A stretch of DNA of 64,000 nt. Source: Raillietiella orientalis. Its lineage: Eukaryota. Shown in pieces: positions 1,135-16,289 of the stretch. The stretch covers positions 310,001 to 374,000 of the forward strand of contig JAYWIR010000055.1 of NCBI GenBank assembly GCA_036172245.1, written 5' to 3'. The number at the start of each line of letters is the position of its first letter. Within the stretch, counting starts at the first letter, position 1. Below the pieces are notes generated by a model, which was given only the letters and a program-made list of their open reading frames with translations, was not told where the DNA came from and did no database searches. The position numbers and the translations under genes were made by a program.

Positions 1135-1249
1135 TAGGATTCGGTGTATTTTGCGATAACTCTTGTGTTTTCTTTTTTCTTTTTAGTTTTATATACTAGA
1201 GGCCTAAAATATGAATACCAAAGCATACAAAAATAAAAGAGTAGTAAGA

Positions 1250-2010
1250 ATGAGCATTAGCGGTAACATATCCGTGGATTCTTTATTAGAATCTGACTCG
1301 GACGAAATCAGCCAATAGTATTTACCCGACAACGTATAAATATTATTGAAAGCGACGATGAATGTAGTGGTGAATCATCATCAGATGAAAATTTAGAATC
1401 ACACAAATTTCTTATTTCAAATTGGCAATCAGCATCCCATCCAAAAAATAGCCTTCCTCTTCCTTGGAAAGGAAATCGTCCTGAAGATCCTGAAGCACCC
1501 TACTCCTAAAATTATTTAGTGACGACATTATAAGTACTATAAGTTGACTATACCAATGCATATGCGCTGCAACATGATCCAGCAAAACCCGTAGGTGTTT
1601 CATCTAATGAAATGGAACAATTCATTGCATCCTGTTTATGGTAAGGACTAAAAGGGATTAGTAGGAAAAGAGGACATCCTATTTCAGCAACCCGTAGATA
1701 AACAACTAGAAAAGAAGGGGAGCAAGTGTAACACTCCCATTCAAAACCGTGCGAAAAGAAATAGCACATAGGTCAATCTTTTCGGATAAGAGGGAACGCT
1801 GCAAAAAGTCGGGATGCAAAAAGTTCCAAAAATAAAATGTTCGAAATGCAACGTCCATCTATGTTGAACACCAGGCACAAACCGTTTTGTGGAATTCCGT
1901 GCTTGAGCTTTTTCTTTCATTGTTAATATGTAATTAAAGGTTGATATTTGTTAATTTCACGTTACATAAATTGTTTTTATAGCCGTAAAAAAAATTCGGA
2001 CTAAAGAGGG
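1250..2010 (+). mobile_element. Internally deleted piggyBac (PGBD3-like) transposase pseudogene
   Basis: Acidic N-terminal segment (DDECSGESSSDE); FSDDII..TNAYALQHDPAKPVGVSSNEMEQFIASCLW at ~1516-1641 matches the piggyBac N-terminal helix motif; Cys-rich tail RCKKSGCK / KIKCSKCNVHLC*TPGTNRFVEFRA* at ~1797-1906; catalytic DDD core missing; GGACTAAAGAGGG TIR-like end near 1998-2010. Confidence 0.7.
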
Positions 2011-3048
2011 TCGATTTTTATTTTTCATTTTCTTGGCACTAGGAAACAAGTCATTAAGACTCCGCCGATAAACTTGAATGGAAAGAAACTCACAATGCAG
2101 CTGAACTGGTCGACATTCCATTAGTTCAGAGTATGATTCGGCAGGATGTAGAGCAACTGAAAAAACGAAAACAGATCGTTCTTGCTCGCCGCTGGTAACA
2201 CTGTTACGGAGGATGCGTTTGCTTAAGGTAGAAACTAGAGGGGAACGTACGAATGGGCTGCGATTGAATGGGTCCGTACGCTCAACCTACGCCCCGTTCG
2301 TGTGTTTGTAAATCATGTTTGGGACCCATTAATCACGAGGATCCAAAGGAACCCCCGGCCTGCATATGCATTCCAAGAAATATGTGCCAAGTTCAAAGTA
2401 GTTGTAAAAGTTCCGATACGGAAGTTCCAGTTTAAACTGTGGAGTGGATACAGTATAAGAATCGTTGCAACTGTAAAGGGTTTTAGAGCATCGGATTTGG
2501 GATTTACTAATTCGAGTTCTCAAATTGAACATTTACAAGAGTGTTCTTCCTCCAACCTTCCCAGGCATCTGGCCAAATTTCCCAAGTTGCCACTTAAATG
2601 TACGGAAATTTTCGAATTCTCGTTGAACGGTACAAGCTGTAGCTGATGAGAAAAAAAAAAAATTAATGCGTTGAAATTTCATAACAAGCATCTCAGTTCA
2701 CAGTCAAAGCGTGTATGGCCTTTTTTCTTTTCTTTTTTTCGTTTAATGAACCATACTTTGTCACTGAATTCCATGCTTGTTAATTTGTTGTACTGTTGCA
2801 TGAAAGTGCATTGTAAATTTGTGTCCAAATGGCAGGGCTCATTTTTCACATTAGGTACAAGAGATTCAAAGCATTCATTTTGTGTACTCAATATACGATT
2901 CAAAGTGTATAAGAATCATGTGCAGATAACTGCCTCTATAATCAAAAGTGCGAAGTTTTCCAGTGCACCATTTTTGTATGCACCCCCCATTCCCCACAAA
3001 TTGACGCACGTGCTTCGTATAATTCCATAGTTCACATGCATAGGTGGG

Positions 3049-5381
3049 ATGGTTTTTGAAATGGACAGTGACAAGCTGAGAAAGAAATGCATGCTTTGGG
3101 AATTGGATGTAAATTCCTTTGACACTGAAGAAATTTCGTATGAAGAAGTTTACACTGCGGAAAAAAAGGGTAAAACCCAATGAATTACAGATGAATTTCA
3201 GGAACATTAATTTTTTATAGAGGAACCACTTCATGATTCTGAACAGTACTCTAAAGTTTGTGTATGTTGTGGAACAAATTTCAGTACTTTGGATGAGTGC
3301 CGAGAGCACTTCAAGTTAGACTGGCATAAGTATAATTTGAAACAATACTTGGCGGGGAAAAGTGAAATGACTGTAGAGGATTTTGCATGCATCAGCCCAG
3401 GTTCATTGGATTTATTTTCCTTGAAAGCAGTTTTCATGGTGAAACTTTTTTTGATGAGAAACTTCCCATTTCAGAAGCATTGTCTAGCATATCAGGATCA
3501 GGAGAATCTGAACCAGAAGTTGAAGTTTTAAAAACTGAAGTGCCTTCTTATCACAAATTAGGGAAAGTACACATAAACACAAAAGATGATGGTACGCTGG
3601 TGTTGCATAAGTGTTTGTTTAAAGTAAGAATTTTTGAGGATATTGATACATTATATGTACTTAGGGTGATTTAGATCTGCAACAGCTGGTGTCAAAAGTA
3701 CAGTGGGCTATACTTATGGCATCTGGAGGTCACTTTGCAGCTGCTGTCTTTCAAAGTAATTTTAACTTAATCTCACTATAAATCAAGTGTCTACTCAAGG
3801 ATGTGACATTTTATGCCATAAAACTTTTCACAGTTATACTGTGAGAGCTCGCCAAGGTGGCAGTCAGAGTCATCATGACAAAAAGAGTAGCATCAATCAG
3901 CCAAAATCTGCTGGAGCTAGTCTTAGACGATACAATGAGCAATCCTTTGTGCAGGTAAATTTTCGATTCATTGAAGATTATTAACCAAATTTGTGTGAAG
4001 CATGTACAAGAATTATTACATTCTTGGGAAGAGAAATTGAGCACTAGTGATTTCATATTTTATCGTGTTCCTGCTTCTCACAGAATGGTTTTCTTTGGTG
4101 GAAAAAAAGCCATCATTTCCATGAGGGATGACAGAGTCATTCAAATTCCCATTACAACACGGCGCCCAACCTTAAAGGAAGTAATAAGAGTTCACAATGA
4201 ATTAGCCACTGTAAAAGTCGCTACACATCCTAACACATTAGTTGATTGTGCATCCAACAGCCAGGTAAGGAGATGAATGCAATTGTTGTATGGATATCTT
4301 CAGTGTTAGACAGACTGTGGAAATGACTGCAAAGCATCATGAGATATGCCCATCCCCTAAAAAGCAAGTGCATAAATTTCGAAATCAACCAGACAAATGT
4401 AATACAGTGCCTTTGGTGCAAGTAGATGAAGTGGTAACTTCAGATAATTCAGGGAAAGCAGTGTTGAAAAAAACAAAAGCAAACAAAACTAGAGACATAT
4501 GTGCAGATGTGAAAGTTGGCAATGGGAATGAGAATCATCCAGATTCACTTTTTGGTCATGCTAAATCAGCAGTTGACAGTCTCACTGAAGAACAACAAAA
4601 GCATATCGACTTGTTGTATACTGCAAGTGTAGTAGCAGACCCTGTAGCTTTGAAAGCTGCAATAAAACAAATACCATGTCCAAGAGGATGTTGTAAAGAC
4701 AATCAGATTGAACAGTCATGTGCAAAGTTAGTGCTAATCAACATTCAGTTTGGTCACCTTAAAAACACTTTGTTGCATGTTGCAGCCAGACAAAGTGCAG
4801 ATGTAGTAAGGTGAGTCTGAGAGAGACACAGCCATTACTTACTTGTATTAGAGTTCTTCTGGACCATGGAGCAGATCCTTGCATTAAAAATAAAGATCAG
4901 TGCACACCTTATCAGGTGTGCACAGATCCTCACATTCGTAATGAATTTCGTCGATTCATGGCATTGCACCCACAGTTGCACAGTTACCAGCTTGCTGCAA
5001 TACCTTCTCCTCTCACTTCTGAAATGGAAGTCAGAAGGGCACAGAAAAATGCATCTCGAAAACGTATTCAAAAAAAAATGAAGAGAGAGAGAGAGAAAGA
5101 ACAGGCAATGCAGAATCATCAGCAGATGCTAGAAACTGAGAAATGTCTTCAGTTTCTGGCACTTTCACATGAAGAAAAGGTGAGTCGATTAACTGGCAAA
5201 CTGTCGAATTCTAATATTTCGATAGTGTTTGCTGGTGCAGCAGAAAAATGCTGATGCTGCGAATCGGTGTTTCCAGTGTGGAAAGCACTTTGGCCATTGT
5301 ACACCATTTAAATATGCTGACAACCAGTTGTGCAGCATTGCTTGTGTTAAGTTACATCGCCAAAAAAAGTCTAATCATTAG
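3049..5381 (+). CDS. ANKZF1: Ankyrin repeat and zinc finger peptidyl-tRNA hydrolase/tRNA endonuclease ANKZF1 (Vms1), ~646 aa; exons 3049-3169, 3221-3400, 3475-3623, 3665-3755, 3800-3954, 4001-4264, 4314-4810, 4852-5179, 5226-5381
   Basis: C2H2 zinc finger CVCC..REHFKLDWHKYNLK; LSSISGS; VLRF1 domain GGHFAAAVFQ..HKTFHSYTVRARQGGSQ..KSAGASLRRYNE; IPITTRRPTLKEV; ankyrin TLLHVAA..VLLDHGADP; C-terminal CFQCG..PFKY..CSIACV..HR. All 8 introns are GT-AG with consistent phases; spliced length 1941 nt. Start could alternatively be ATG 3061. Confidence 0.93.
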
Positions 5382-5388
5382 ACATTCT

Positions 5389-5394
5389 TTTATT
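5389..5394 (-). terminator. AATAAA poly(A) signal overlapping the PLEKHM1-like stop codon
   Basis: Minus strand reads AAA TAA AAG; the TAA stop (5392-5390) is part of AATAAA. Confidence 0.6.
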
Positions 5395-7756
5395 TTGAGG
5401 ACTTATACACATGGGAAGCCTTGCGTGCACATTTAGGGCAAGGGATCATTGAACAACTTTTGTGATATACAGACTTGCAATGGTGGCATTGTTGGGTATG
5501 CTCCAAATCAAATGGATACAAAACCTCGTCACCATGGCACGTCTCGCAAATAAATCCTTTCTGAGAACACAAAAAGCAATCGTAGACATGTGCCTGCATA
5601 CACTGGACAGCACTGTTAACTTCCCAGGCCAAAACTCCATTTGGTACCTTAAGAAGATCCTGCAATCCGATAATGAATGCCTGGGTCTATACTTTACACA
5701 TACTTACTGCAACAGAATACACATGGACATGTTCATAAAAATGCGACCCAAATGTTAGGGTTTCCTTTATGCACAAGGCACTTTTACTGTTGCACGTATG
5801 TATGTAAGCAACAAGTAGCATCAACTGAAAACGCAAGTTCTGCAGTTTGGCCAGTTCACTAACCATAAGGTACAGCACCGGATTGTCTCGATTAATATTT
5901 AACAAAGGTGCAAAGTGGATACTCTGTAAGAAAATCAAAATCTCGTGGGCAACAGGGTATTGACGGAAATCCCAATTGTGCAAAAGGCGTGATGGAATAA
6001 TGCTGTAAGCATGATTGTGACACTTTTTACAATAATAATGGCCATCATATGCACAGTAAATAGCCTGACCAAATGTTAGGCCAATTGCTTGATTACACTG
6101 CATGCACTGATACTGCTGAGAGTCAAGACCTCTATCATTCTGAATAGTAGTCAGAAATGATGAAAGTTCATCTTCCATGTTGCATACCTCAAAATCATCA
6201 TCATCCGTGGAACTTTTGCTACTGGGTTCTCTTTCATTCTGCAATGAACCAGTATGTTGTGATACAAGACTATTTTCATCCCCTAACAAACTCAGGGGCA
6301 GTATTCCAGGATCATTCCGATCCTGCAATGAACTAGACAGCAATATATCAAAACTACTTGAGTCTTGTAGTGATCTAGAAAGTGGCATGTCTAGGTTTGT
6401 ATCCTGCTCAGCAGATTCCCTTTTGCCTTTCAATGGATTAGAGAGTTGCACATCCAGATCACTACTTCCGTCTTGTAAAGAGTTAGAAAGTGACACCTGA
6501 GGATTCCTGGAATCTTGTGCATAGGATTGCCAATCACCTTTTAGCGAACTACACAGATGTATGCTAGAGGTATTCATGTTTGGAACTGAACTAGAGAACT
6601 GTATGCTGGATTCATTCCTGTCCTGTGTAATCTTGAAAAATTGCATGCTACCAATATTATATATGGAACTTGCTAGCTGTTGCATATTAACATCACTTCT
6701 GTCTTGTCCTTGTTTGTGCTTGAACAACAAAGTGCTAAAAGATTCGGTTAAAGGACATAACACGGAAGGACTATTCTTTACATCTGATGGTGTTTCTGGA
6801 AAGCACACACGTTCTGCATCATCTGCTGATTTCTCCAAAAGACCACTTTGATCTGCAAATTCCGAAGGAATCCGCAGATCCTCTGCATCTATTGATGTCC
6901 CAACATGCACTACTTTTGTAGGTTCCATTTTGCACATATGATCTTCATCAACATCCTTAACAGAGTTCTTCTGCATGCAGATTTTATCCAGTAATGATCC
7001 TGTGGGAGTCATCATAATTTTAAACGATCTTTCTGTACTGAGATTATAAATGGAGGAGCACAAACTGTGTAGATCACCATCACTTGACATGGAAGCAGAA
7101 CCAGTAACAGTATCTGGCAATGCTTCCTCTGCAATATAAACAGGTTCCAGTGTTTCAGAGGTCAGTAGGCCTGCCATTGATAGTGTAATAGAATTCCACT
7201 CATTGAGCAGAGTAACATTGCAGGCTAAATTAAATAGAACTGACTGCAGGCTTTGAACCATACCCAAGAGCACATCTTGGCATTCTGTGTCAATCAAGAA
7301 AGCACAATGCCAGTAACTATGTTGTATCAGCTTCTTATCACTCAGTAAACTATGAATACAACTGTATAGAAGACCTTGGTTGAGCGAAAGACGAAGCCAA
7401 CTTCTGCATCGCCCCACATCATTATTGATCTGAGTCATCTGATATATTTCTTCAATCATGGTACCATGCAAGCACTGCCGTAAAAGATACCAAAAATTCA
7501 AGGATGCGGATTTATTGGAAGACAAAGCCTGCAAAAGAGATGATGGTTTCAGCCCATGTAGTAAAGTAGCTTCTAAAACAGAACACAACTGAGTGCTATC
7601 TTCATTACTGATGATACATTTCATTTGCTCGTGAACATCCAGCACCATGTGCACTACATCTACTAAGCATTTTTTCAAGGCTTCCCGCTTTTGCATCAAG
7701 AAACTAAGCTGCACCTGTTTCTTACTTTGCGAGTGTTTGTACCAAGTGTTCAGCAT
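5390..7756 (-). CDS. PLEKHM1: PLEKHM1-like RUN and Rubicon-homology (RH) domain protein, ~772 aa; exons 7756-5708, 5659-5390
   Basis: N-terminal RUN domain ([34 protein letters not shown]); C-terminal RH zinc-binding domain ([77 protein letters not shown]); 48-nt GTAAGT..TGCAG intron at 5707-5660 joins the two ORFs in frame. Confidence 0.85.
5549..5554 (+). terminator. Candidate AATAAA poly(A) signal for ANKZF1, inside the antisense PLEKHM1-like CDS
   Basis: First AATAAA seen on the + strand after the ANKZF1 stop (5381). Confidence 0.45.
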
Positions 7757-7992
7757 GCCTGAACAACAGTTTCAAGAACTAATTCGATCTCTTTGGGTGC
7801 AAAATCGTTGGGATCATAAATTACACGAACTATAAGAGAACAACTAGGACAAGCTGCTATTTCTTCTCCAGCAGCCAATTCTGCACCAGTTATTTGGAAA
7901 CGATCTCCACAAGGGCATGGATAATAGTAAATGTCATCTTCCTCTTCATACTCAAAATCCTCAATTTCTACCTCATCATGAAACACAGCCAT
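7750..7992 (-). CDS. DPH3: Diphthamide biosynthesis protein 3 / Kti11 (CSL zinc finger), 80 aa, intronless
   Basis: [49 protein letters not shown]: near-identical to the metazoan DPH3 N-terminus with CPCG and CPSCSL motifs. Confidence 0.97.
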
Positions 7993-8656
7993 CTTGAGTC
8001 AAATGAATCAAACCATATGAATGCAACACCTTCAATGCTTCTTTTAACGCTACACCTTCACGAATTACTTTGTAATGTCCAGGGACAGAAAGATTAAGCA
8101 CAGTAGAACCAGCACGCAATTCATCACATGTACCTAATCTTCCTTGATCAAAAACATACGCAACTTCTGCATGAAGATCAGAAAACTCTTCAACAGTTAA
8201 AGGGCTCAACCCTTCACTGAGATTAGCACTTGTGAGTGCCAAAGGATTGTCACAAATATGACACACATTAACAATAAAGTCACACTTGGGTATTCTCACT
8301 CCTACTAACTTAAAGTTAGGGTTCAACAAGGGATTAAGAATTTTTGAGCGTTCAAACACAAGTGTATATGGACCTGGAAGCAAATCTCTAAGTATTTCAT
8401 CACAAACAGTCACACAACACCACTGATGGATCTCACTTATTGAGGATACACAGATGGATATAGGCTTATTGTAGGAACGTTTTTTGATGCTATACAACTG
8501 ACTAATAGATTTAGGTAGCTGAGCTAGAGTAGCAAAACCATATATTGTATCCGTGGGAACAGCAATTACTTCACCTCTCAAAAGAGCATGAACAGCCAAA
8601 CCAACTATTTTGTTATACGTAGGGCTTGTGACTGGGGGCACAGCAACTACAGTCAT
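7976..8656 (-). CDS. YRDC: Threonylcarbamoyl-AMP synthase YRDC/Sua5 (t6A37 tRNA modification), 226 aa, intronless
   Basis: [54 protein letters not shown] motifs of the YrdC/Sua5 family. Confidence 0.95.
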
Positions 8657-8666
8657 TAGTCATAAT

Positions 8667-9097
8667 TTATCCACGCCATCTATAGCCACAAGTTGGACTG
8701 CAACATTTATAAAAAGTTGTCATTGGTTCATCTGCAGAACGTGTTTGTAGCTGCATAAAATATGCTCTGGGATATTCACACTTAGGACAAGGTTCCTCAG
8801 TAGCATCTACGTTTTCCCAGGCAGCAGTACCACCTAGAACATCATCCACTTCCTAAAAGAAACAATTACTTGACTTTATGGCGTACACTGACATATAATA
8901 TTTGGTTAATTCACATACTGCTGAAAGCAATGGAAACAATAGACAAATAATTAAACCTTTAAGGCAGGATACTGTTTGCTGCTTATTTTTTGACAAATAT
9001 TGAAAATGTATGGACATGTGCTACAAGTAAATCGGAAGCCCTGAGAAGCTTCCTCAATTCCCAAGATGTTGGCACAATTGGGGCAAAACAACAGCAT
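8667..9097 (-). CDS. POLR3K: RNA polymerase III subunit RPC10/C11, 108 aa; exons 9097-8957, 8852-8667
   Basis: MLLFCPNC..FTCSTCPY..YPALK|EVDDVLGG.AAWENVD..CPKC..RAYFMQLQTRSADEPMTTFYKCC..CGYRWR; TFIIS-like RSADEP acidic hairpin; 104-nt GT-AG intron at 8956-8853. Confidence 0.97.
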
Positions 9098-9370
9098 AAG
9101 GTTTTTGCAGTTTCTCAACGCTACTTCCGCATCACAGCCACTTCTAAAACAAAGCTCAATCTTATTCATTGTATGCAACGTTTAACATTTAATGAACAAT
9201 CTAACAAACAGATAATTTTAAATCGAGTTCAAAACCCCTGTGGCACGAACGATCGCATCAACCTTTTTTTTTTTGTTTTTTCCAAAGAAAGGGAATAGAA
9301 AAAGGAATAGAAAGATGAACATCTGCGCACTAAGCGGAAAAAATAACTGAATAACAACAGCACGACTTAC

Positions 9371-9560
9371 ATTTAACTTGTACTAAACATACATGGACAA
9401 AAGTCAAACTAATACGCGCTTATCCAGGAAACTGATACTGCAATACCAATTTTAAAGGACACTCCTTCACCACGACGCTACATAGCGACGAACCAGCGAT
9501 GCGATTTCAGTGGGTGCACAACGTGAACGTTGCCAACTCACCTCAAAGAGAGTTCAACGA
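9371..9560 (-). promoter_or_regulatory. Putative non-coding first exon and promoter of the POLR3K-YRDC-DPH3-PLEKHM1 unit
   Basis: GTAAGT donor at 9370-9365 and TTTGTTTTAG acceptor ending at 9144 define a 227-nt 5'UTR intron; local return of CpG dinucleotides (~9230-9530) against the CpG-poor gene bodies. TSS position not determinable. Confidence 0.5.
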
Positions 9561-12399
9561 TTTGCACATAAAAATAAAATACATGCAAAAATATTTCATT
9601 TTTATGCAAATGCAGGGAACTTTTGCATGTTCATGTGCAAACAAGCTGTAAATATCATAGCATTATTCTCACTGTTTTGTTCACTTGGTAAAAATATAAG
9701 TGTTGTGATTCAATGATTTGAGAAACTTAATGATGGAACAGTAATTGGACACGGAACAGTTTTGCACAACGTGATAATTCAGTCAGTTACTAATCTATGT
9801 ATTTCCCTGGAAAAAAAAAAAGATAAGAATGCTCTTTGGTCTTCAAGTTGCATTTTCTCTCTCCTGCTGCTACTCCATAATGCTTCTGTTCAAAAAATTC
9901 CCAGCTATTTATTTCAAAATGACGTTATTATTTTGGTGAATAGGATTAATTTTCCAATAGCATGATTATCACCACTGGATCATGCACCTTTGACGTCTGA
10001 GCCATATACCGAATTTTGAGAGACGCCGCTACAACTTTGAAGCGCTTGCTCGTGTCGAGGCATAAGAGTCCCTTGAATCTCTGGACGTTCTGATAGGCGG
10101 AAGAAATGGAATCCTGGAGGGAGCGAGCTCCTTAGATGCTCGCGGAAGAGTCCCCTCCCGCCCTCGAGGGAAGCCTGGAGACACTGTGGCTTCACACGAC
10201 CGTACTTTCTCAGGACACTCTGGTGCCCGATCTGCACGGCTTCCGGATCACGACTCCGCCTGCTTCCTACCTGTTGCTGGAGGTCACCTGAGCAACACCG
10301 GGCGCACCCGATTCCCCGATCCATGACAGCGGGCTTACGTTACGCTTTCTACAGATGCGTGGCTGGAGATTCCCAACTGGATCAGCCGACCACCATCTGT
10401 CATCTCCCACGTGAGAAGAGAAAGAGCCAAGCGCCATGAATCCAAGGCAGGAAAGGCAAGACTGCTCCTTTCCTTCCTTTCTCCCTGAAATGAGCCTGCC
10501 GGATCCTCCGCTTCCCCGTGGTCTCGTAGACACCTCGGCGTCAAACCCTTCCTCTTCCAAAGACGAGATCGAAGTCCGTCTTGAAGGCTAGCACAAACAA
10601 ACACCGCATCCCTAGGACCGCATCTCTGGCCGTCCAGAGCTTCCTCGCAACGCCCTGCCGAGGCTTTGTAGGTGTCCCAGGCAAGCAAAGCGCAGGGCTC
10701 GTAGGAGCGGCTGCAAATCGCTCCTATCGCAAGCGGCGCTCGCGCCATCTCTGACGTGAAACGTGAAGCAGAGTCACTGGGAGGTTGTCACACGCAAGGC
10801 AGGAATCCCGTCTCCCGAGGGTGCGTGTGTACCTACCGGTCCAGAGCAGACGCAGCCTCTGCTGCTGCTGCTCCTCTACTTTCCTCCGTGCAGCGAGCGG
10901 AGGTTGCCGAGCACGAACGGGAAGTGCCCTCTCTCGAGCTGCTCTTACCATGCTTTGTGCAAGAGAGTCTTTGTGCAACACACTCAGTGAATGTGAAAAT
11001 ACATATCGATGATTAAGCATATGATCTTCAATCTGTATCCTTACACTTCTTAATATAATGTTGCAGATTGAAGGGCGTACGATGTGGATTCAGGTTATCT
11101 TCCTTTGAAAAGCTTGGGATTTATTTACCGAGTCAAGTGTGGCATGAGAAAAGGTCACTACCGTATAAAAGAATCCCCATATATGGCTTTCTATTTATTA
11201 TCGGAAATAAAGTAAGAAAAATTATATTGAGACTGGAGTCATACGATGGAAATTTATGCCCTTTCATTGTGACAATTTGAATTATGAGGTGGAGCGCTGG
11301 GGGAGAAAATAGAATGCTCTTGTATTTGCAAAAGGTTTTTTTTCCCAGCTGCAAAACGTCAGTAATTCCGTGTGCGTTACTGTCCCAACGTCCGTTATTT
11401 ACTAATGAAATAATCATAATTCTGTACACGGTTTCAGACTTCCATACCACAAATAGGTTTTTTTTATGTGACGTTTAATCCCTGTTGTTTGGTTACGAAA
11501 GAAAAGCCTCCATTTCATTTCTGGTTCCTTAGATGAGGAAAATAAAACTTGATGCTCTTAGGAGCTTGAGAACCGTGGCGAATGGCATCCAGGAAAAGGA
11601 GCATTTCACGCTGCTGAACAAAGTTGTAAATGTGTAGACCAGAAGATCAAAAGAAGAGCACAGAGGTTGGCCTCAACAGGACGCAGACACGCAGCCGCTG
11701 CGGTCACGCAGGTGAAAGCAGGTCTGCAAGAAAACGATGCCTTGCATTGTGGTCACATCAGAGAACAAAAAAAAAAAATGATCAACAGGGATGGCATGCA
11801 AAGCGGGCTGGAAATTTTTCTCCTTGCGATAACGAGGCAAATTCAGTAACAAATGATGACCTGATTTGTGAAGTATTTCGATGGGAATCCTTTGGGGTTC
11901 TTCTGTTTTCTCTGCTTTCCTTCCGGATGTTTTTTTTTTTTTGCTTGTTTGTTGGCTGGGCGGAGGGGGAGAGCTTCTCAAGGAGTAGAGAAAAACCGTC
12001 GCCTCCTTAGGAAAGGGGAAGGAAGCTCACAAAGCTCTTTAAACACTGTCCATGCCACCCGAGGATGCGTGTAACTTCAGCTTGGGGCAGCCCAGAGGCA
12101 CCATCCTATGAGGAAGACTCCTAAGAAAGTTTTGTAGGGAACGTGGAAAGGATCCGTTCCTTGCATCCTCCTCTGAAGAGAACCCCGGAGTAACGCTTCC
12201 CTATTTCACTGAAGGGCGCTCCCAGAAGGGAGCGGAGTGCGCTTTTACGCCCTGCAGAGGCATCCTCCCGAGGGAGTATCAACCAGCTCCATGGTAACGG
12301 GTTCATTTTCAGAAACGGAGGGGACCCCAAAGGGAACCGACTCCTTGATTCCTGGAAGGACTTCCAGTCTCGATAGGTCTGCAGGAGCATTCGGTTTCC

Positions 12400-15278: not shown

Positions 15279-16289
15279 TTATTCTTCGGGTGCCAACTCT
15301 TCCTCTTTGTTCACGGCGGTGTCTTTCCCTTCGCTCTTGATGGCTTCCTCCTTGACGCTTTCAGGAACTTCTTCTTTCGGTTTGGAGATGACCGTCGTCA
15401 CCTCCACCGCCTTCATCCAGTCGTGCTTCAGCACGAGTTCCAAGGTGATTCGTTTCGTCACGTCCGGCTCCAACATGGCCATGATCATCCTCTTGAGTTC
15501 GTTGCTCAGCCTGTCGCGCACGCGGGGCCGGAAGGACCAGCTCTTACTCAGCTGGTCCTTGAGCATCCTCTTGAGGTTGGAGTCGTTGAAAGGCATGGCG
15601 GCGTTCACCATGATGAACAGGATGATCCCCGTGGACCAGATGTCGGCCATCTTCGGGTTGTACGGCGAGCCGCGCACGACCTCCGGGGCGGCGTAGGCCG
15701 CGGACCCACAGTAGGTTTCGCTGAGCACCCGCTTCCCGTCCTTGTCCGTGCACATGCGCGCGAAGCCGAAGTCCGCCACCTTGATGTTCAGGTTCTTCGT
15801 GAGGAGGATGTTCTCGCATTTGAGGTCGCGGTGGGCGATGTCCTTCTGGTGGAGGTACTGCAGCGCGGACGACAGCTGCCTGAACCACACCTTGCTCTGC
15901 AGCTCCGGGATGGCGCCGTTGCCCTTGATATAGTCCAGCAGGTCGCCCCCTTCCGCGACCTGCATGAAGATGTAGACCTTGTCCTGCCTCTCCAGGATGC
16001 TGTGCACGCGGATGATGTGCGTGTGGTCGAGGGCCATAATGATTTCCAGCTCCCGGGGGAAGAACTTTGTGACGAAATCCTCGGGCGCCTTGCTGCGGTC
16101 CACGATCTTGCACGCCAGTTTCTCCCGCCTGCCGCCCACCACGTATTCCGCCATCCGCACCTTGGCGTATGACCCCTGACCGAGTTTCTTCCCGAGGACA
16201 TAACCTTTCTTGTCGAGTGCCCTTTCTTCGCTAGTGGGTAAGGTAAGAGCCATAGCAGACAGGCAGAGGGCGAAGAGTGTAGGATGCAT
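15279..16289 (-). CDS. Testis-specific serine/threonine kinase (TSSK family), intronless; start may be the second ATG at 16253
   Basis: Complete kinase domain LGQGSYAKV, ACKIVDRSKAPEDFVTKFFPRELEI (TSSK signature), HRDLKCENILL, DFGFAR, LSETYCGSAAYAAPEV, ADIWS.GIILFIMV..MPF; strongly GC3-biased codons; stop TAA lies in AATAAA (15283-15278). Confidence 0.93.
   Translation of the reverse strand: MHPTLFALCLSAMALTLPTSEERALDKKGYVLGKKLGQGSYAKVRMAEYVVGGRREKLACKIVDRSKAPEDFVTKFFPRELEIIMALDHTHIIRVHSILERQDKVYIFMQVAEGGDLLDYIKGNGAIPELQSKVWFRQLSSALQYLHQKDIAHRDLKCENILLTKNLNIKVADFGFARMCTDKDGKRVLSETYCGSAAYAAPEVVRGSPYNPKMADIWSTGIILFIMVNAAMPFNDSNLKRMLKDQLSKSWSFRPRVRDRLSNELKRMIMAMLEPDVTKRITLELVLKHDWMKAVEVTTVISKPKEEVPESVKEEAIKSEGKDTAVNKEEELAPEE

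Follow-up and report, generated by a model that had tools for sequence, protein, structure and literature searches.

How can four unrelated housekeeping genes that overlap or abut end to end on a single strand each yield their protein? The question is raised by a gene cluster of Raillietiella orientalis, examined at about positions 5390–9560, on the minus strand, of a 64,000-nucleotide (nt) stretch of DNA (positions 310001–374000 of contig JAYWIR010000055.1), named here the window. In the minus-strand order the genes are POLR3K, YRDC, DPH3 and PLEKHM1, with stop-to-start gaps of +10, −17 and −7 nt, respectively. We consider it probable, from sequence comparison, that all four are carried by one polycistronic mRNA, which would be read by leaky scanning and reinitiation, and that DPH3 was inserted in this lineage. 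The cistrons are arranged as follows.

9097–8667, minus strand: cistron 1, POLR3K/RPC11, 108 amino acids (aa), PF02150 and PF01096
9097–8957 and 8852–8667, minus strand: the two POLR3K exons, with a frame-consistent join across a 104-nt intron
8656–7976, minus strand: cistron 2, YRDC, 226 aa, intronless, PF01300, homologues about 52% identical
7992–7750, minus strand: cistron 3, DPH3, 80 aa, intronless, PF05207
7756–5390, minus strand: cistron 4, PLEKHM1-like, about 772 aa, RUN and Rubicon-homology domains, PF02759 and PF13901
7756–5708 and 5659–5390, minus strand: the two PLEKHM1-like exons, with a 48-nt intron and an N-terminus that aligns with the orthologue starts

The four open reading frames (ORFs) are non-identical, conserved and encoded on one strand, with the spacing of FlyBase-type polycistrons: for the obligate polycistrons of Drosophila, PMC4528330 gives stop-start distances from −34 to 319 nt. 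YRDC begins 10 nt past the POLR3K stop, DPH3 overlaps the end of YRDC by 17 nt and the PLEKHM1-like start overlaps the end of DPH3 by 7 nt. The POLR3K–YRDC junction (8679–8656, minus strand) contains three ATGs, one per frame. YRDC is devoid here of the N-terminal extension seen in several orthologues, some of which begin inside the end of POLR3K (L041, L053). No YRDC–DPH3 fusion was found among the eight long DPH3 homologues checked; DPH3 has a single match found in its own genome, and a word-index search with PLEKHM1 returned only four Rubicon proteins.

The arrangement is conserved across species for POLR3K–YRDC, also with PLEKHM1, DPH3 being the exception. Scanning metagenomes with an alignment of YRDC left 80 loci of 457 confirmed, at which neighbour counts are floors, as many contigs end too early to show the neighbours. 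POLR3K lies upstream of YRDC in at least 21 of the 80 loci. PLEKHM1 lies downstream in at least nine, which are spread over three distinct branches of a quick tree, and it is the third cistron in L016, L023, L026, L030, L031, L037, L053, L054 and L089. A DUF4807-CYTH gene is found downstream in at least six; in L027 and L043 it forms the third cistron after POLR3K–YRDC, with a 4-nt ATGA overlap. DPH3 accompanies YRDC at none of the 80 loci (0/80). In the genome studied here no linkage of DUF4807 to YRDC was observed, DUF4807 being on another contig. Gene order, overlaps, conservation and the sequence statistics given below are what the analysis shows directly.

The first two genes have a counterpart in Drosophila, the pair CG33785/CG33786, in which we take CG33785 to be Polr3K, an identification that fits the 108-aa length. 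CG33786 is named Tcs2 in PMC5372737, and PMC2276209 describes the pair as a 108-aa 'transcription' upstream ORF and a 'translation' main ORF, with expressed sequence tag support out to Bombyx. File S1 of PMC4528330 lists it as 'all di/polycistronic', with a 1-nt overlap and no monocistronic form annotated. By analogy, the POLR3K–YRDC pair matches this obligate dicistron in its two genes, their order and a near-zero gap. Unlike the fly pair, the window cluster carries two further ORFs, the last of about 772 aa, and a gap of +10 nt replaces the overlap. The POLR3K–YRDC pair is already published, while no publication of the three- or four-gene unit was found in a search that left most subscription journals outside.

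To judge from these loci, POLR3K–YRDC–PLEKHM1 is an old arthropod tricistron and the window locus a four-gene variant of it. One contig of the scan (L026) combines POLR3K, YRDC and a PLEKHM1 of 694 aa and lacks the introns that its clade-mates L023 and L030 (starred clade) have, and its 161-nt spacer contains zero AUG. It looks like a spliced tricistronic transcript, the alternatives being intron loss or assembly merging. A quick YRDC tree places the window sequence among crustacean-like rows, with a support of 82, unstarred. A search for odorant receptors, meant to help in placing the organism, gave no match anywhere and carries no information on this point. At a divergent locus (L088:2449–4633), POLR3K lies upstream of YRDC with a gap of 1,060 nt.

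What we infer is that this species makes a single mRNA, how it is translated and in which direction DPH3 moved, as follows. One promoter near 9430 would give one capped mRNA with four ORFs, on which ribosomes would scan past weak starts and reinitiate across the near-zero gaps. In this lineage, intronless DPH3 would have settled between YRDC and PLEKHM1 and ended up overlapping its two neighbours. Start-context purines would be supplied by the AGs that precede the starts of DPH3 and PLEKHM1, and the AG before YRDC would be a by-product of conserved codons. Sequence features near the two ends of the cluster are listed here.

9200–9560, minus strand: CpG-rich promoter-like stretch, with a CpG observed/expected ratio (o/e) of 1.37 in 9201–9500
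9144–9370, minus strand: putative leader intron, donor 9370, acceptor uncertain (9144, 9201 or 9323)
5389–5394, minus strand: AATAAA at the PLEKHM1 stop (motif scan)

The stretch 9201–9500 is the sole CpG-rich one adjoining the cluster, CpG o/e in 300-nt bins being 0.16–0.57 over 5001–9200. A motif scan found TCAGTT hexamers at 9435 and 9350, resembling what we take to be the initiator (Inr) consensus and pointing to a putative start site. The donor 9370 reads GTAAGT and has the highest score of the 155 GTs in 9620–7790. Besides the PLEKHM1 stop, the only AATAAA in 5200–9800 is at 7516, inside PLEKHM1.

With regard to leaky scanning, the start contexts give a mixed picture. The −3 bases of cistrons 1–4 are C, C, A and G, so that the POLR3K and YRDC contexts are weak and that of DPH3 is strong although it is not the last. 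At orthologous loci, position −3 of the third-cistron start is an A in all 11 cases, and a purine occupies that position before the first ATG of YRDC in 2 of the 19 loci linked to POLR3K, as against 11 of 21 without this link. YRDC cores followed by a third ORF contain 38 AUGs vs 52.2 ± 4.3 expected by synonymous permutation; by the same procedure the 19 other YRDC loci contain 176 AUGs vs 170 expected. In the window, POLR3K and YRDC taken together have four AUGs in strong context over 1,008 nt, where last cistrons would lead one to expect 15 (Poisson p 0.0009). Zero internal Met is found in YRDC and DPH3, and POLR3K retains two. On the modelled mRNA, 15 of the 31 AUGs before PLEKHM1 begin ORFs of ≤10 codons. 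Start contexts that are weak upstream and strong downstream, with upstream ORFs free of in-frame internal Met, are also described for stoned, Snapin, silkworm uENF1-uENF2-PP and green-algal bicistrons (PMC2978622, PMC11892635). Unlike these leaky-scanning mRNAs, the cluster has two internal Met in POLR3K and undepleted out-of-frame AUGs.

Several observations weigh against one mRNA read in this way. The 31 AUGs (nine strong) that precede PLEKHM1 compare with 13 (three strong) in L026, and DPH3 adds to its strong start four strong internal AUGs. Out-of-frame AUG depletion is absent in POLR3K, YRDC and DPH3 of the window, and strong-context AUGs are undepleted relative to synonymous permutation in both the window and the orthologues (z −1.28). 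An out-of-frame ATG at 8663, with A at −3, stands 7 nt ahead of the weak YRDC start. Met-free proteins are common (33 of 120 YRDC, 27 of 112 DPH3), and the orthologous POLR3K starts are strong (11/11), a poor fit to simple leakiness. The orthologous loci are non-independent, several coming from two clades; assemblers can merge overlapping RNAs; and an AG ending at 7759, described below, stays above chance as a splice acceptor. Dicistronic cDNAs still joined also occur in the Ciona operons that PMC1488885 describes as resolved by a spliced leader (SL).

Pure cap-dependent leaky scanning as the sole route was rejected on the AUG load and the undepleted out-of-frame AUGs. Scanning alone is unlikely to be sufficient because of these two features, the undepleted strong-context AUGs, the frequency of Met-free proteins and the strong orthologous POLR3K starts, and reinitiation, a minor splice or an internal promoter would be needed. 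The Drosophila tetracistron CG42381-CG42379-CG42380-CG9865 (PIG-M) is likewise made up of unrelated ORFs, four in number and spaced by −1, 8 and 22 nt, and is annotated as all polycistronic. Unlike its upstream ORFs, which are of 65–84 aa, those of the window place about 1.35 kb and 31 AUGs before the last ORF and its protein of about 772 aa.

Internal promoters in the coding sequence of POLR3K, YRDC or DPH3 would solve this load by giving shorter downstream mRNAs, to which the AGs would be irrelevant. PMC4528330 presents such promoters as the usual source of 3′ monocistronic forms in Drosophila, for example CG33671, and Inr-like hexamers are found at 8501 and 8006. Such hexamers are nevertheless common (nine in 4.6 kb), the fly POLR3K–YRDC pair has no monocistronic form in its annotation and CpG o/e is 0.28–0.43 over 7701–9200, as in methylated gene bodies, with no island like that at 9201–9500. 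We regard internal promoters as improbable.

The original prediction was that splice-acceptor-like sites lie hidden in upstream coding sequence directly before the downstream starts. The three proposed sites are:

8698–8715, minus strand: proposed YRDC acceptor, formed by codons of the conserved POLR3K motif TTFYKCCS, common to orthologues
7993–8012, minus strand: proposed DPH3 acceptor, doubling as the strong start context CAAG-ATG-G
7759–7769, minus strand: proposed PLEKHM1 acceptor, the sole site above chance, its G being the PLEKHM1 −3 purine

The AG ends at 7759, 7993 and 8698 and the GTAAGT donor at 9370 are present as described, and the ACTCAAG ending said to be shared with ANKZF1 intron 4 was confirmed by a frame-consistent join. 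The wording 'directly before' does not hold for YRDC: 8698 is separated from its start by 41 nt, in which two out-of-frame ATGs occur (8679 and 8663), and no AG is found within 10 nt upstream of the YRDC start. The sites 8698, 7993 and 7759 fall short of the point where the upstream stop codons end by 31, 17 and 9 nt, respectively.

The strength of these sites was estimated with an acceptor position-weight model built on 22 hand-annotated, frame-checked introns of this genome (area under the curve 0.76–0.79), taken from ANKZF1, POLR3K, PLEKHM1, NDUFAF7-like and PTEN-like genes and with a median length of 46–48 nt. One of them, ANKZF1 intron 8, is an uncertain call; two NDUFAF7-like junctions, being ambiguous, were dropped before scoring. 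The introns are very short, 17 of the 22 measuring 33–56 nt, and their acceptors are weak (3040–5390 and contig 280000–308000). All 209 exonic AGs between 8840 and 5720 were scored under four model settings, in which 7759 ranks 2, 2, 2 and 6, 8698 ranks 6, 7, 19 and 32 and 7993 ranks 50, 45, 44 and 34. Background AG density is high: an AG ends ≤2 nt upstream of 20% of positions, ≤10 nt upstream of 55% and ≤41 nt upstream of 97%. Relative to 5,558 coding positions, the best AG has p 0.004–0.13 before the PLEKHM1 start, 0.10–0.59 before that of DPH3 and 0.06–0.40, in a 50-nt window, before that of YRDC; combined, the three sites give p 0.02–0.26, having been chosen after the fact. Under synonymous recoding, an AG of equal or higher score recurs in 14–25% of trials for 8698, 3–12% for 7993 and 2–5% for 7759. 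Only 7759 is acceptor-like beyond chance. The other two look like chance by-products, 7993 of the start context and 8698 of conserved codons, its AG being present because of the POLR3K motif.

The C-terminal tails of YRDC and DPH3 had been taken as read-on through these signals. The YRDC tail exceeds the homologue median by about four residues (40 vs 36), a length reached in 3 of 120; such an excess would result from any new overlap. That of DPH3 is rather short (29 vs a median of 34; 106 of 141 are as long or longer).

The acceptor-like character of 7759 bears on a reading in which the four-ORF mRNA exists but cis-splicing from 9370, 9541 or an internal donor to 7759, perhaps also to 7993, skips the upstream cistrons, giving PLEKHM1 or DPH3 a near-5′ position and compensating the DPH3 insertion. 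We judge this reading unlikely, and it is kept alive because the one good acceptor, with a score above 77–91% of real acceptors and still unusual given the DPH3 peptide (0.02–0.05), is placed where the AUG load is worst. The best donor of the region, 9370, is available, the ATG made by the 9371→7758 join has T at −3 and need not block, and the 9371→7992 join would give DPH3 an A at −3. Alternative splicing that breaks one of the coding regions is recorded in FlyBase as a source of monocistronic forms (PMC4528330). Against this, an intron of 1.4–1.6 kb would have to prevail over that of POLR3K, and of the 22 annotated introns of this genome 18 are <75 nt (653 and 3,872 nt occur). No YTRAY branch motif is found within 45 nt of 7759, whereas 11 of 22 real acceptors have one within 30 nt. 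The 9371→7758 join would also replace the G at −3 of the PLEKHM1 start by a T. Among seven orthologous PLEKHM1 starts, AAG or GAG occurs within 10 nt in three and YAG in none, so that no such acceptor is seen there, and a single site at p ~0.02 among three picked by eye is weak evidence.

The proposal that the pre-mRNA is an operon resolved by SL trans-splicing, at 8697, 7992 and 7758, appears very unlikely to us. Trans-splicing is known in some crustaceans (PMC4664967, PMC7986045), and the host appears to be a poorly sampled pancrustacean. Four YRDC contigs (L011, L013, L015, L018) begin with the published calanoid leader, from which an SL is apparently added to YRDC in some crustaceans; these copepod contigs, SL cap included, still hold the YRDC and DUF4807-CYTH ORFs together on one contig. 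By analogy, the nearest precedent is that of spacer-less Ciona operons, which PMC1488885 describes as SL-resolved without intercistronic DNA and which share with SL1-type Caenorhabditis operons same-strand genes and an acceptor within the upstream transcript. Unlike in those systems, where the upstream mRNA has its 3′ end at the acceptor, the sites lie here inside upstream coding sequence, and splicing 9–31 nt inside the upstream ORFs would cut each before its stop. In an SL operon the upstream mRNA would end after its stop and at or before the acceptor; here the sites precede the stops, and the motif scan gave no AATAAA between 9190 and 7516. Moreover, the arrangement is conserved to Drosophila, where the annotation is that of a mature dicistronic mRNA.

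Narrow searches for an SL gene are weak evidence, as leaders differ between lineages and an unfamiliar leader would be missed. The calanoid SL motif has 29 matches in this genome vs 12 for a control pattern, and none of the eight inspected extends into the leader end and donor. An Rfam SL1 search gave no match, and no positive control responded. A donor and Sm pattern has one match (stretch L101), and neither an SL gene nor another RNA family was found beside the five 5S loci inspected of 43. In contigs C23, C24 and C40, the 5S rRNA genes are often inverted pairs 1.3–1.7 kb apart, with degenerate copies alongside.

Other polycistrons of this genome gave an independent test of acceptor use. Among the Drosophila polycistrons listed in File S1 of PMC4528330 and looked for here, the PIG-M locus is kept (contig C9; L106:589–2289), with a 111-aa ORF, a 68-aa CX9C-like ORF and PIG-M, and it shows a TAATG stop-start overlap. 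On contig C32 (L108, minus strand), ALG6/8, BolA and an intronless mevalonate kinase stand in a row, the BolA stop lying 4 nt ahead of the mevalonate kinase ATG. The opposite strand at the PIG-M locus carries what is presumably a TCTP-like gene. No acceptor enrichment was found at the three downstream starts of these two polycistrons (combined p 0.49–0.94), one of them lacking any AG in the 50 nt before it, and the six downstream starts pooled with those of the cluster give p 0.07–0.41. An acceptor above chance thus precedes one of three downstream cistrons in the cluster and none of three elsewhere, which argues against the SL operon as well.

From the original prediction, one polycistronic unit and an acceptor-like 7759 are retained. 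Its resolution by SL trans-splicing or by gene-specific acceptors is not, two of the three sites being explained by coding or start-context constraint, with the orthologous PLEKHM1 starts and the other polycistrons speaking against gene-specific acceptors.

A bolder scenario, which we hold to be doubtful, would combine the DPH3 insertion with 7759: entry of DPH3 would have blocked scanning to PLEKHM1, and the lineage would have recruited a new acceptor in the DPH3 coding tail, so that the pre-mRNA would yield a message for four proteins or else, by removal of three entire genes as an intron, one for PLEKHM1.

Ribosome access to ORFs 2–4 of animal cellular mRNAs is unsettled beyond a few fly and moth cases, and the locus offers a natural series, from the fly dicistron through tricistrons with PLEKHM1 or DUF4807-CYTH as third gene and SL-capped copepod forms to the four-ORF form. 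It suggests that polycistronic units can gain or swap genes, and it makes the mechanism of ribosome access testable with one reporter.

The surroundings of the cluster are distinctive. An ANKZF1-like plus-strand gene and PLEKHM1 meet tail to tail (region 3040–5390); the names ANKZF1, NDUFAF7, PTEN and TSSK are partly our own presumption from similarity. The first 10 kb of the window form a CpG-poor, AT-rich island (CpG o/e ~0.3) within a GC-rich contig, and comparable CpG-poor islands upstream carry further housekeeping genes, a pattern suggestive of gene-body methylation. The remnant of an acidic ORF, degraded and interrupted by many stops and frame changes, lies at 1200–1800 (plus strand), and we take it, tentatively, to resemble the N-terminus of a piggyBac transposase. 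In the GC-rich, CpG-normal compartment, an intronless testis-specific serine/threonine kinase-like gene is found at 15279–16289 (minus strand). Its nearest named matches are ostracod (67–68%) and then springtail (63–65%) proteins, and the host is therefore placed, on this similarity, among the pancrustaceans.

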